In this document: piece after piece, positions 30,695 through 35,521 of the stretch | How the letters are laid out: every line of letters begins with the position of its first letter | How positions within the stretch are numbered: position 1 is the stretch's first letter | DNA from: an uncultured candidate division Zixibacteria bacterium | GTDB lineage: Bacteria; Zixibacteria; MSB-5A5; UBA10806; 4484-95 | NCBI GenBank assembly: GCA_963668625.2 | Contig: CAXXKA010000006.1 | Location: 96,001-160,000 of the forward strand | Reading direction: 5' to 3' | DNA length: 64,000 bases | Notes under the pieces: model-generated | What the model saw: only the letters and a program-made list of their open reading frames with translations | Databases searched by the model: none | Told to the model about the DNA's origin: nothing | Translations under genes and position numbers: made by a program

Positions 30695-30731
30695 ATCTTA
30701 ATTATTTCCCACGATCGATTACTCGGATATT

Positions 30732-30938
30732 CTATTTAGTAACAGCCTTTTTTCTCTGCGTATGTTTCTTCTTTATGAGTTTAGTCTCAATCAACTCGGA
30801 TGAATGCTTTAATGTCACCCGCCCGGGGCGACAATCATCATTCTGTCATTTAGCTTTGGATGATTTATATGCATGCAGATTTATTATAATTACAGTCAAA
30901 CAAAAAGCAGCGACGAGTATAAGCAAAAAGTAAAACAT
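30732..30938 (-). CDS. Candidate small membrane selenoprotein C (68 aa; UGA at codon 31)
   Basis: Manual translation MFYFLLILVAAFCLTVIIINLHAYKSSKAK-U-QNDDCRPGRVTLKHSSELIETKLIKKKHTQRKKAVTK*; TGA at 30846-30848; hairpin at 30813-30833; weak RBS. Confidence 0.5.
30813..30833 (-). promoter_or_regulatory. SECIS-like hairpin of ORF C
   Basis: UGUCGCCC-CGGGC-GGGUGACA; the loop starts 20 nt after the UGA. Confidence 0.55.
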
Positions 30939-30959
30939 AATTGGAAACCCGATTTATTC

Positions 30960-31157
30960 TTATCGATTAACTCCGGTTCTATCTCGTTGCTGCCGGTTAT
31001 TTTTCGTCTCGTTGCCGGAGAATTCTTTCAGTTTAGCCGCACGGGCTTTCTTGCGTCTTTTCGATCAGGGGCCGACCGTGTTGCTCCAAAGCAATACCCC
31101 GGTGATTATAACCGCAATTCCTATACCGATATTATACACCATCGAAAGTGCTGTCAT
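30960..31157 (-). CDS. Candidate small membrane selenoprotein B (65 aa; UGA at codon 31)
   Basis: AAGGAAG RBS; MTALSMVYNIGIGIAVIITGVLLWSNTVGP-U-SKRRKKARAAKLKEFSGNETKNNRQQRDRTGVNR*; TGA at 31065-31067; short AGCC-CGUGC-GGCU hairpin at 31035-31047. Confidence 0.5.
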
Positions 31158-31478
31158 AACTTCCTTTTCCTGTTTTATGATAATATTTTACCGTCTGGCT
31201 TTAGAAATCGGTAGATTGATTATCGGGATTTAGCCTCACCGATTCACTTTGTTGCATTATGGATGGATCTATAAATCGTTTTCAGTTGATAGGTATGTTT
31301 ATTGAATTATGTTAATTAGTAATATCACTAGTGTCCGGTGTTTTTCGGTAAGTTTCAACTTTCACCATGGAATTGTCAGTAAAAGATATTTTCCGATATA
31401 ACTATATATTCAGCGTATCATGCATCCTGATATATTCTGCCGATGTTAGGCTTAGTTCCCTGGTTTCCAAGCGCTGTC

Positions 31479-31572
31479 TGGAAACCTTCTTGAGTCATGT
31501 GAAATGCGCATTCTGCCAGCAAATAAGCCACGTTGCGACGCATCGCTTGGCAACGAGATGGAAAGGCCGGAT
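31479..31572 (+). repeat. ~93-bp direct repeat, copy 1
   Basis: TGGAAACCTTCTTGA.TCATGT..AATGCGCATTCTGC...AAGCCACGTTGCGA.GCA.CGCTT.GCAACGAGATG, shared with 32930-33022. Confidence 0.85.
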
Positions 31573-31638
31573 AGTTGTGTAATATTGTATTGATTAAACA
31601 GTAAACGGTTTAGGTCTTAATCTGTAATCTTATTCGCT

Positions 31639-31782
31639 TTAATTTTTATCTTTTTTATCACTCCGCCCGGGAGGACAACCCTCGGGGCGCATTCACGTTT
31701 TTATTCCCATCTTGGGGAACAGGTATATCTGTAGAACGAGATACACGCCGAGTATTAGTATTAAGGTCAGGATATCATTCAT
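31639..31782 (-). CDS. Candidate small membrane selenoprotein A (47 aa; UGA at codon 30)
   Basis: MNDILTLILILGVYLVLQIYLFPKMGIKT-U-MRPEGCPPGRSDKKDKN*; TGA at 31693-31695; hairpin at 31655-31678; no clear SD. Confidence 0.6.
31655..31678 (-). promoter_or_regulatory. SECIS-like hairpin of ORF A
   Basis: UUGUC-CUCC-CGGGC-GGAG-(U)-GAUAA; the loop starts 23 nt after the UGA. Confidence 0.55.
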
Positions 31783-31852
31783 AGTGCGTATAGTAACTTT
31801 GTTTTGTGATAAATAGTTTCATTGCACGAAATGTAAACTCACAATATCAATG

Positions 31853-32818: not shown

Positions 32819-32929
32819 GTGAAATAGTACAAGTTGATTATTGGATTGAATTGGAAGTTAGTATCAGTATATTGCTCCGCTTTTATCCTGCCTAATCTTG
32901 CCGTTGCGATGTCTTGGTCAGGTGCTGCT

Positions 32930-33022
32930 TGGAAACCTTCTTGAATCATGTAGAATGCGCATTCTGCAGGCAAACAAGCCACGTTGCGAAGCAGCGCTTC
33001 GCAACGAGATGAAAAGACCGGA
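32930..33022 (+). repeat. ~93-bp direct repeat, copy 2
   Basis: Matches 31479-31572; contains the palindrome CGTTGCGAAGC-AGC-GCTTCGCAACG. Confidence 0.85.
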
Positions 33023-33275
33023 CACTAGTGATCATTTTATTATCCTGAAAAAATTATTTCTTTAACGTCATTACGAAACTTCTCCTTGGGTTTTGAATAC
33101 AAATAACTTGTAATACGACCCGCTAAATAATGAAGGGATAAACTCAATGATAAAAATACCTAAGTAGCAAAGCTGTTGACTTTAGCTGCTCAAATTCGTA
33201 TTTTATTATCTCTTTATCTGTATGCTTGAAAACAAAATTATCTTTCCAATAACTACCTCAACGAAAGGATACTAA

Positions 33276-34328
33276 ATGGTCGGTATCGTAGGTTATGGAG
33301 CGTATATACCCCTAAACCGTATCAAGGTGGAGGAAATCGCTAAAGTATGGGGTGCCGATGCTCCCAGCTTCAAAAAGGGGTTAATGCTTCAGGAAAAATC
33401 AGTTCCCAGCCCGGATCAGGACACGATCACCATGTCGGTGGAGGCAGCAAGGAGGGCCATCCTTCGCGCCGGAATCGATCCTAAGAATATCGGAGCTGTT
33501 TATATTGGTTCGGAATCACACCCCTATGCGGTGAAACCCTCCGGTGTTACGGTCGCCGAGGCGATAGGGGCGGTACCCGATTGTCATTGCGCCGATTTCG
33601 AGTTCGCCTGTAAAGCAGGTTCAGAGGGAATGTTCGTTGCCATGGGCCTGGTGAAAGCAGGCGAGATCGAATATGGTCTCGGTATCGGCGGCGATACCTC
33701 GCAAGGCGCTCCCGGTGATGCTCTGGAATACAGCGCCTCGGCTGGAGCCGCGGCTTATATATTTGGCAAGGAGAACCTGGTAGCAGAATGCCTGTACACT
33801 CACTCGTACATGACTGACACGCCTGATTTCTGGAGAAGGGAGTACCAGTTCTACCCTCGTCACGCCAGCCGCTTTACCGGTGAACCGGCGTATTTCAAAC
33901 ATACATTCGGCTGTACTCAGGCTATTTTGGAGAAAGCCAACATGAAACCCGAGGATTTCAGGTTCGTGGTGTTCCATCAACCCAATGGGAAATTCCCCAT
34001 GACCGCCGGTTTGAAGCAGGGATTCAAACGCGAGCAAATCGAGCAGGGCTGGCTCTCGCCGCTGCTGGGTAACACCTACTCCGGGGCATCGCCGATGGGC
34101 TTGTCAGCCTGTCTTGATGTCGCCGAGCCGGGAGATAAAATTCTGATGATCTCGTACGGTTCGGGTTCGGGTAGTGATGGTTTCATCTGGGAGGTCAAGG
34201 ATCGTATCAAAGAGGTTCAGAAGATGACCGTGCAAACCCGCGAACAGCTCGAATCAGATAAGAGAATTTACCTAGATTACGGCACCTACGCCAAGTATCG
34301 CGGCAAGATCAGGAAACTCCCCGTTTAA
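33276..34328 (+). CDS. Hydroxymethylglutaryl-CoA synthase, archaeal type
   Basis: GIVGYGAYIP, GSESHPYAVKP, EFACKAG (catalytic Cys), FHQPNGKFP, GNTYSG, SYGSGSGSD. Confidence 0.92.
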   Translation: MVGIVGYGAYIPLNRIKVEEIAKVWGADAPSFKKGLMLQEKSVPSPDQDTITMSVEAARRAILRAGIDPKNIGAVYIGSESHPYAVKPSGVTVAEAIGAVPDCHCADFEFACKAGSEGMFVAMGLVKAGEIEYGLGIGGDTSQGAPGDALEYSASAGAAAYIFGKENLVAECLYTHSYMTDTPDFWRREYQFYPRHASRFTGEPAYFKHTFGCTQAILEKANMKPEDFRFVVFHQPNGKFPMTAGLKQGFKREQIEQGWLSPLLGNTYSGASPMGLSACLDVAEPGDKILMISYGSGSGSDGFIWEVKDRIKEVQKMTVQTREQLESDKRIYLDYGTYAKYRGKIRKLPV

Positions 34329-34354
34329 CTAGAATGCAATAGGAGAATAGATAA

Positions 34355-35521
34355 ATGAGAGAAGTTGCAATAATCGGTATCGGAATGAACAAATGGGGTG
34401 AGTTGTGGGATATCTCTATCCGCAACCTGATAGCTGACTCCGCCCTGTTGGCTTTAGATGATGCCGGTATTGAAAAGGATAAAGTGGAAGCGATGTATAT
34501 CGGCTGCATGTCCTCAGGGTTGTTTACCGACCAGGAGCATCTGGCAGCTATTGGCCCGGATTACTCGGGCATGTTACCGATTCCGTGTACCCGTGTCGAG
34601 TCGGCCTGCGCCTCGGGTGGACTGGCTTTCCGTTCGGCGCTCATGCATGTAGCCTCGGGCATGGCCGATATCGTAATGGCTGTCGGTGTGGAGAAGATGA
34701 CAGATGTCGATGGCGCCGGAGCTACTTTCGGACTGGCCACCGCCGCCGATCAGGAATACGAGGTGTACAACGGCGTGACATTCCCCGGCCTGTATTCCAT
34801 GATGGCAACCCATCACATGCATCACCACGGAACCACCCGCGACCAGATCGCAATGGTGTCGGTGAAAAACCATGAGAACGGTTCGAAAAACCCGCTGGCC
34901 CAATTCCCCATGAAAGTTACTCTGGAACAGGTGAAAAACGCCGTGATGGTTGCCGATCCGCTTTCCATCCTGGATTGCTCGCCTATAACCGATGGCTCGG
35001 CTGCGGTGATACTGTGCTCGATGGATAAAGCTAAAGAGATCTGCAAGAAACGCCTGGTGAAAGTAACCGGCTCGGGTCACGCTACCGATACGATACAGCT
35101 TGCCCAGCGCGAGGATCTATCATATTTAAAATCAACCCGGATAGCCGCTGAAATGGCTTACAAGATGGCCGGTCGTACGATCAAGGATATCGATTTTGCC
35201 GAGGTACACGATTGTTTCACTATTGCCGAGATCATGGTGATGGAGGCTATCGGCCTGGTGGATAAAGGCAAAGGCGGCCCGGCGGTCGAAAGCGGGCTTA
35301 CGCGTATCGATGGCAAGTTCCCGATCAACGCCTCGGGCGGTTTGAAATCGAAAGGTCATCCCGTGGGAGCTACCGGTGTAGCTCAGATAGTCGAGCTTAC
35401 CAAGCAGATTCGCGGTATTGCCGATGAGGGCCGTCAGCTAAAGAAAGCTGATGTTGGATTAGCACAGAACATGGGCGGCTCCGGTGCCAGCTCAGTTGTT
35501 CATATACTGGAGGGAATTTAA
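34355..35521 (+). CDS. Acetyl-CoA acetyltransferase (thiolase), archaeal/SCP2-like type
   Basis: [31 protein letters not shown]. Confidence 0.92.

Follow-up and report, generated by a model that had tools for sequence, protein, structure and literature searches.

SELENOK and SELENOS are eukaryotic single-pass membrane selenoproteins in which selenocysteine (Sec, U in motifs) lies near the C-terminus and the SECIS element (for Sec insertion sequence) lies in the 3' untranslated region. Bacterial selenoprotein catalogues have come from pipelines needing Cys homologues of reasonable length. The DNA analysed in this work (the window) is a stretch of 64,000 nt from an uncultured Zixibacteria bacterium (GenBank assembly GCA_963668625.2, contig CAXXKA010000006.1, positions 96,001 to 160,000 of the forward strand), and its subject is a group of three short minus-strand open reading frames (ORFs), A, B and C, each interrupted by an in-frame TGA behind one hydrophobic stretch. 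The best explanation as a whole, to which a probability of about 0.75 is given, is that A encodes a probably thioredoxin-coupled membrane selenoprotein of an unnamed family and that B and C are most likely its tandem duplicates. A 2026 review tables 119 prokaryotic selenoprotein families and subfamilies (PMC13188914, Table 1), and no single-pass membrane peptide and no motif of the [ST]-U-x4-C type was found among these 119.

All three ORFs start with ATG, none lies inside a long ORF, and no ORF of gene size was found across 30695-31852 of the window. An earlier note, made from the letters of the window alone, had described three minus-strand ORFs with TGA codons and open tails, and their translations were exactly as stated: the TGA is the 30th codon of A and the 31st of both B and C, with 17 open codons behind it in A (to TAA), 34 in B (to TAA) and 37 in C (to TAG). 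The hairpins that it had placed 20-23 nt past the UGA, by the start of the loop, were found by folding in A, B and C alike, and two further details, a ribosome-binding site ahead of B (here seen to be of AGGAA type) and a start of C 21 nt past the read-through stop of B, were both borne out. The features of the trio, in positions of the window, are:

31639-31782, minus strand: ORF A, TAA stop included; 47 codons, predicted single-pass membrane protein with proposed Sec at codon 30
31693-31695, minus strand: in-frame TGA of ORF A, proposed Sec codon; TGA or Cys in the same column in relatives
31645-31695, minus strand: SECIS-like element of ORF A (covariance model, fold, family covariation)
31661-31673, minus strand: family-type hairpin of ORF A, CUCC/CGGGC/GGAG (fold and family covariation)
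31664-31689, minus strand: alternative, larger two-part stem-loop of ORF A (fold)
30960-31157, minus strand: ORF B, 30 hydrophobic codons, TGA, 34 basic codons, TAA; orphan
31065-31067, minus strand: in-frame TGA of ORF B, codon 31
31035-31047, minus strand: hairpin of ORF B, AGCC/CGUGC/GGCU, 4 bp, loop starting 21 nt after the UGA
30732-30938, minus strand: ORF C, 30 hydrophobic codons, TGA, U-x4-C, 37 codons, TAG; orphan
30846-30848, minus strand: in-frame TGA of ORF C, codon 31
30813-30833, minus strand: hairpin of ORF C, UGUCGCCC/CGGGC/GGGUGACA, 8 bp, loop starting 20 nt after the UGA

ORF A and its family

ORF A is most likely a genuine gene in a widespread, unnamed family of membrane-anchored proteins of about 50 residues that, judged from sequence comparison, most likely carry Sec. 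Its UGA very probably encodes selenocysteine, Sec insertion itself being what we infer from the machinery, the conserved UGA, the Cys forms, the coding tail and the covarying hairpin described below; on these grounds the membrane selenopeptide proposed in the earlier note stands for A.

The Sec machinery (SelA, SelB, SelD and tRNA-Sec) is present in the host genome, which is bacterial (4.3 Mb, 45% G+C, 10 contigs). When selA, selB, selC and selD were sought in it, selD, selA and selB were found side by side on contig 1 (C1:154251-158454), each above curated cut-offs (353.8 bits for selD, which has one in-frame TGA, 467.8 for selA and 347.9 for selB), and the tRNA-Sec was found on contig C2 (68 bits; ARAGORN call SeC(tca)). 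selA was matched in 266/285 genomes of the phylum and in 194/198 of those of good quality; since the trait is general there, the presence of selA is useless for correlation within the phylum.

Members of the family share a transmembrane (TM) helix followed by a short motif, TM helix-[FL]P[KR]xG[IV]x[ST]-U/C-x4(5)-C. In the orthologue from the same genus the TGA occupies the same codon, and M-R-P, the Cys and the Lys/Asp-rich end are all kept in its tail of 17 codons. A search with the read-through peptide of A matched 101 of the 285 phylum genomes at E ≤ 0.1, and almost every alignment contains exactly one TGA. The motif [FL]P[KR]xG[IV]x[ST], then TGA at codon 30-33, then 12-38 open codons were found at 30/30 loci, and 39/40 further loci gave the same pattern, the 40th being broken by a contig end (12-43 open codons after the TGA for both locus sets together). 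A profile built from 28 members, in which P, G and U are invariant and W is near-invariant, matched 148/285 phylum genomes at E ≤ 0.001, with a single match per genome. One in-frame TGA was present in each of 142/148 of these alignments, and the 6 without TGA do not reach the Sec column, their last aligned profile position being 31 or lower; neither TAA nor TAG was found at the UGA column in the 142 matches reaching it. Matches were spread over 6/20 taxonomic families sampled, and the other 14 gave none with this query. ORF A was the sole match in its own genome (E 5e-21) and carries the W, P, G and U/C columns of the profile; B and C lack W, P and G. The UGA is thus kept in orthologues of A with coding sequence behind it. 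At four loci of a sister family of the same order, f2 (L031, L034, L038 and L041), the Cys of the x4 spacing is absent, and a Cys 16-20 residues further on is followed, at once or one residue later, by a second TGA (...KKCG-TGA, ...KKCN-TGA, ...KKCD-TGA and ...NNC-TGA). Tails ending in TGA number 12/30 overall.

Homologues with Cys in place of the UGA of A were found in other lineages. A search with a profile against 1.84 billion cluster representatives returned 926 proteins at E ≤ 0.001, and 234 relatives drawn from this search and from a word-indexed search were examined; their database annotation is hypothetical protein, with 29-31 residues when ended at the UGA. The chain ends exactly before the UGA column in 130/234, the column holds Cys in 66 (mostly as C-x4-C), Trp in 28 and Gly in 4, and 6 do not fit the pattern. 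The spacing of four residues to the next Cys was seen in 54/66 Cys forms and in 24/28 Trp forms, and the Trp and Gly forms are presumably TGA codons read by the source pipelines under other code tables. Ten Cys-form loci were obtained from a scan in which the Sec column was limited to Cys/Trp codons, and the labels of their metagenome-assembled genomes are Deltaproteobacteria, Polyangia, Myxococcales, Chloroflexota, Bacteroidota and Desulfobacteraceae. A selA match was absent from 4/5 Cys-form genomes, the completeness of which is not established. Cys homologues aligned to the proposed Sec were found for A, and none for B or C.

Conservation continues past the UGA in the relatives of A and is of coding type. 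Substitutions were counted by codon position in 25 within-group pairs from ten groups of close relatives, which are not independent and show the same direction across groups; the counts for positions 1/2/3 were 95/92/174 after the UGA and 188/84/335 in the 28 codons before it. The tail evolves as coding sequence would, with an excess of third-position substitutions. Stops within 12 codons of the UGA were found at 0/30 loci in frame, at 7/30 in frame +1 and at 22/30 in frame +2, a count that is weak alone because frame +1 is often open in A-rich tails.

A stem-loop is conserved shortly behind the UGA in the family of A. The best stem with a loop starting 21-32 nt from the UGA had a mean score of 7.55 over 30 loci, compared with 4.83 in dinucleotide shuffles and 5.87 in the best of 200 shuffle sets. 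Stems are lineage-specific yet pair (UCCC/GGGA, CUCC/GGAG, GUUCC/GGAAC, GGUCC/GGAUC), and loops, mostly GUG, GUC, GGC, GGU or CGGGN, start about 24-29 nt from the UGA and mostly begin with G or CG. In the ten Cys-form loci, the hairpins have no common position or loop. Because the registers of the hairpins are shifted, RNAalifold predicted zero pairs when given 30 post-UGA stretches in a plain MAFFT alignment, and a covariance model was therefore trained on 10 sequences from the sister family f2. This model was run on 59 other loci (80.6 kb, both strands) and gave 17 matches at E ≤ 0.1, 16 of them at the expected post-UGA site. In the resulting alignment, which includes a few off-target rows and comes from a model that also carries sequence signal, 90.8% of cells were paired against 74.1% after shuffling (0/500 shuffles reached 90.8%), compensatory changes occurred in 7/7 pairs, and the covariation score was 0.36, compared with 0.139 for shuffled alignments and at most 0.088 with slid partners. 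ORF A itself scored 17.5 bits against the model (E 1.5e-4 in 1.3 kb).

Comparators in the host genome were limited to selD and one peroxiredoxin (Prx) gene; formate dehydrogenase alpha was sought and gave no match at E ≤ 1e-10, and the four FlpD matches had no TGA and were unusable. selD (C1:154251-155174, plus strand) has its in-frame TGA followed by a hairpin GCC/CGA/GGC with the loop CGA, and the peroxiredoxin-family gene (C6:586403-586801, minus strand) has one in-frame TGA and a hairpin loop GGUC. Both loops start at position 21 from the UGA. The hairpin of the A family covaries, and its distance from the UGA is like that of these SECIS elements.

Minimum-free-energy folding of ORF A gave the larger two-part stem (-15.6 kcal/mol, z -1.06 against shuffles), ORF C folded at -19.8 kcal/mol (z -1.74), and the 76-nt stretch of ORF B, with an inner hairpin of 4 bp, folded worse than shuffles (z +1.73). 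The hairpins are followed by an A-rich run and by no T-run, and a reading of them as intrinsic terminators was set aside for that reason. Rfam gave 0 matches at gathering score in the 64 kb, although it is not established that Rfam holds a general bacterial SECIS model.

Topology, gene neighbourhood and possible function

Charges are unevenly distributed in the family (n = 28). The first 6 residues hold on average 0.46 Lys or Arg and 1.46 Asp or Glu, and the part from the conserved Pro onward holds on average 5.46 Lys or Arg. By the positive-inside rule, the Lys/Arg-rich part behind the helix would place Sec and tail in the cytoplasm, as the earlier note had guessed for its peptides, and the charges of the A family fit that guess. 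The predicted layout is a short acidic N-terminus outside, one TM helix and a short charged tail inside. The UGA of A would be read as Sec by the ordinary bacterial SelB/tRNA-Sec route, helped by the hairpin about 21 nt downstream.

A thioredoxin of 108-132 residues is encoded upstream on the same strand at 22/40 loci with flanks (16/30 Sec and 6/10 Cys forms), and at 11 loci a CoA-binding protein sits between. A fusion of DsbD_TM and thioredoxin lies downstream at five Cys loci, and one database protein (P0062) is a read-through fusion of the small protein into a thioredoxin domain. At ten loci of A's own order the upstream gene encodes an acyl-CoA dehydrogenase. The complex predicted for a Cys-form small protein and its neighbouring thioredoxin scored 0.00, a value that speaks neither for nor against their pairing. 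Sec and the nearby Cys would most likely form a redox-active selenylsulfide or selenol-thiol pair on the cytoplasmic face of the membrane, probably kept reduced by the thioredoxin that is the gene neighbour in many genomes. On the evidence of the neighbourhood, the odds of such a thioredoxin-linked redox role for the A family are about even. If it is confirmed, a thioredoxin-linked redox site would lie directly at the membrane surface.

Genes for a rhomboid protease (PF01694) and a response regulator lie downstream on the same strand at 12 loci (L035, L042-L045, L048, L049, L053-L055, L057 and L058). A single-pass membrane protein beside an intramembrane protease could be a candidate rhomboid substrate.

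Several observations weigh against a thioredoxin-coupled selenoprotein in A. No thioredoxin adjoins A, the nearest on its contig being about 87 kb off, and A and its same-genus orthologue have five residues, not four, before the Cys. The case for a U...C redox pair in all members is weakened by A's own order, in which a nearby Cys is often absent or is near the C-terminus instead. The sequences of the covariation alignment are related and had been fitted to the model, and the ten Cys-form loci average 5.8 on the stem measure used for the 30 Sec loci. The hairpins are short and none of the three folds is significant singly, frame +1 behind the UGA is mostly open too, and A has no Shine-Dalgarno-like sequence upstream, although its relatives have one.

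The last of these points (short hairpins, an open frame +1 and the lacking ribosome-binding site) would also suit A and its relatives being membrane peptides of about 30 residues that end at the UGA, the hairpin downstream having a regulatory or stabilising function in the RNA, and 130/234 database entries are annotated as ending there. Such termination is improbable, however, given that the stop is always TGA in the 142 profile matches reaching it, that Cys homologues run through the position and keep the Cys four residues on, that the tail has its third-position excess, that no T-run follows the hairpin and that the Sec machinery is present. A role as selenium-sensing leader peptides that tune downstream genes, with the peptide itself unimportant, would agree with the small gene lying directly upstream of the rhomboid protease and response regulator at 12 loci and with the loose conservation of the tail; yet the TM helix and P..G..[ST] motif are strongly conserved, UGA-free Cys forms keep the architecture in genomes without selA, downstream genes vary by lineage and the next gene here is on the other strand, and the leader function is regarded as very improbable. 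Least probable of all is a reading in which each of the three ORFs ends at the UGA and encodes a small hydrophobic toxin of a type I toxin-antitoxin-like module. Their size, hydrophobicity and intergenic position resemble those of such toxins, but the A family is single-copy and phylum-wide, with full-length Cys homologues and thioredoxin neighbours, and a promoter/terminator consensus scan of the region (6 promoter-like sites where shuffles had 4.7 +/- 2.6, no excess) offers no promoter for an antisense RNA. A selenoprotein remains the preferred reading of A.

ORFs B and C and the surrounding sequence

The clustering of the three ORFs exceeds chance. A filter set after the trio had been seen (ATG, 24-40 codons, uncharged hydrophobic stretch, TGA, at least 17 open codons) retained 32 ORFs of the whole 4.3-Mb genome. 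All but 6 of them lie in long ORFs, and A, B and C, which fall within 1.05 kb, make up 3 of these 6. Another of the six lies on contig C8 near 474821 (minus strand) and is signal-peptide-like, with ...TPLGI before the TGA and KSKK... after it.

A nucleotide core, CCCG[GT]GCGG, was found behind the TGA of A, B and C at 21, 19 and 18 nt, respectively. It occurs 82 times genome-wide (both strands); TGA-N15-24-motif occurs 17 times, and a hydrophobic ORF stands ahead of it in A, B and C only. B has CCCGTGCGG in common with A at the same offset, and a repeat (D2) is common to A and C in the region of the C hairpin. DNA of A and C aligned at the same offset from ATG scored 16, compared with 9.8 +/- 1.4 for codon shuffles (reached by 1/1000), and the alignment of B and C is weaker, being reached by 18/1000. 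Stem bases outside the core vary but still pair (CUCC/GGAG in A, AGCC/GGCU in B and GUCGCCC/GGGUGAC in C). B and C hold the 9-nt core in different codon phases, and what is conserved is therefore the nucleotide sequence, as an RNA or DNA feature and not as a peptide. Because the hairpin core is common to all three, B and C are probably related to A, and on these sequence grounds they are probably diverged copies of it: A would have been duplicated locally in tandem, and the peptides would then have diverged fast while the UGA position and hairpin core were kept.

Doubt over B and C begins with their homologues, found nowhere in the genomes and protein collection searched. In an order-wide search (24 genomes) the best E-values for B and C were only 0.024 and 0.147; the 285 phylum genomes gave just 2 and 3 chance-level matches (per-genome E-values from 2e-4 to 8e-3), most of which are interrupted by other stops and none of which, on inspection, has the TM-U architecture; and read-through B and C had no homologue among the 30-36-residue proteins of a large collection. 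Neither protein profile nor RNA model recognises them: they are missing among the best 30 family-profile matches in their own genome (E up to about 9), and the f2 RNA model passes over their UGA sites (1.8 bits for the B hairpin alone). The family-invariant W, P and G are absent from both, no Cys lies behind the UGA of B, and C has no ribosome-binding site. The three-gene system of the earlier note did not hold up as a conserved unit, B and C being without homologues in these searches and unseen by the models, and as selenoproteins the two are no more than candidates.

These observations are what would be expected if B and C are non-functional, either decaying relics of duplications of A or peptides ending at the UGA, so that only A matters. 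At 29 other loci the family gene has no such extra ORFs next to it, a MITE-like repeat lies between A and B, and the whole trio sits in a long, repeat-invaded intergenic stretch. On the other side, B and C have both kept the ATG, the hydrophobic helix, the codon position of the TGA and a tail that is long, basic and open; their hairpin cores lie at the expected spacing between flanks that are different but can still pair; C retains U-x4-C, then Pro-Gly; and the genome has very few ORFs of this kind. Non-function is accordingly put somewhat below an even chance. That B and C are working selenoproteins is doubtful by the same sequence comparisons, and the chance that ribosomes still pass their UGA is put at about one half. 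It is rather unlikely that all three ORFs are translated selenopeptides, in which a cassette of helix, UGA, minimal SECIS and charged tail duplicates with the RNA signal as its sole constant. Were this true, cassette duplication would be a route by which new membrane-anchored micro-selenoproteins are born, and the parent family, overlooked by annotation pipelines owing to its small size, would place a thioredoxin-coupled selenol on the inner membrane face throughout the phylum. If confirmed, the local trio would be a natural experiment on the minimal sequence for a working SECIS context.

The repeat between A and B resembles a miniature inverted-repeat transposable element (MITE):

31322-31579, no strand assigned: interspersed MITE-like repeat of about 258 nt, between A and B, outside genes

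Its terminal inverted repeats of about 14 bp (TCACTAGTGTCCGG... and ...CCGGACAGTAGTGA) have AT-rich flanks. The element gave 118 high-scoring segment pairs in its own genome, including 77 copies of 240-320 nt that are 72-91% identical to the window copy (most 84-91%), and a partial copy lies at 32919-33030 of the window, beyond the 321-residue gene upstream of A. Rfam held no match for it within the window.

The neighbours of A are the gene for this 321-residue protein of unassigned function, an NAD-dependent epimerase gene and an HMG-CoA-synthase-like gene; the gene next downstream of the trio is on the opposite strand. Behind the HMG-CoA-synthase-like gene, which has weak PF01154 and PF08541 matches, comes an ORF that is thiolase-like by a look at its sequence (33276-35521 of the window for the two together, plus strand). 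Pairing of HMG-CoA synthase and thiolase genes is typical of archaea, and an archaeal origin, hinted at by these neighbours, was ruled out by the bacterial selA and selB.

Comparison with known families and systems

ORF A belongs to no catalogued family in Pfam-A, NCBIfam 20.0 or Table 1 of PMC13188914. In Pfam-A and NCBIfam 20.0, no family was found for A, C or the same-genus orthologue (genome G002) at E ≤ 10, and B gave sub-threshold matches only (Vpu and CrgA). Ten relatives (nine Cys forms and P0062) had nothing above cut-offs except the thioredoxin domain of P0062. The ESM Atlas returned only clusters of hypothetical proteins and no Pfam families, and a sequence search of the PDB gave 0 matches at E ≤ 1. 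A full-text literature search for such a family, to which supplementary family lists do not belong, found nothing, and a term search of those parts of PMC13188914, the deep-Sep paper and the BSepDB paper that were accessible found neither 'transmembrane' nor 'membrane'. The minimum ORF length of the BSepDB pipeline is 200 nt (PMC13326102), which would exclude an A-type gene of about 144 nt; to such a pipeline a gene of this size is invisible, and it would be skipped or annotated as a hypothetical protein of 29-31 residues.

If confirmed, the family, which about half of the phylum genomes carry in single copy, would enlarge the selenoproteomes there by a common member. As far as we know, and within the searches of this work, it would then be the first single-pass membrane selenoprotein from a bacterium.

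The membrane proteins closest in design differ from the A family in sequence and build. SELENOK and SELENOS, the nearest analogues by function, likewise combine an N-terminal TM helix with Sec in a short cytosolic tail (disordered in both), but they are eukaryotic, about twice as long or more, and without sequence relation by Pfam scan. The DUF2892/YgaP-type membrane domain ends in ...LGI[SN]TC, and a Gly-Ile-x-Thr-Cys stretch closing the membrane helix is a resemblance between it and the A family; the latter has one helix instead of two and lacks the first Cys-Pro, and membership in DUF2892 was ruled out, with no Pfam match at E ≤ 10. With the thioredoxin/DsbD-CcdA relay the A family has in common the gene neighbourhood and a juxtamembrane pair of redox-capable residues, but it is not homologous to DsbD or CcdA and has a single helix, and a partnership is suggested by the neighbourhood only.

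Among the prokaryotic selenoproteins tabled in PMC13188914, the dual CXXC motif small protein, UXX-star, KCU-star and selenobacteriocin are also short and usually truncated at the UGA. The NCBIfam and Pfam models of these small catalogued selenoproteins miss A and its relatives even at E ≤ 10, and the A family differs in its motif, [ST]-U-x4-C behind a TM helix. Compared with bacterial selenoprotein genes such as selD and Prx, ORF A has the same arrangement of an in-frame UGA, a close hairpin, Cys homologues elsewhere and Sec machinery in the genome, and their hairpins are of similar size, although slightly closer to the UGA than those of the A family. The A family differs from them in its length of about 50 residues, its membrane anchor and the absence of a thioredoxin fold or known domain. 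The mechanism of Sec insertion at this locus appears to be ordinary, and the protein family appears to be new.

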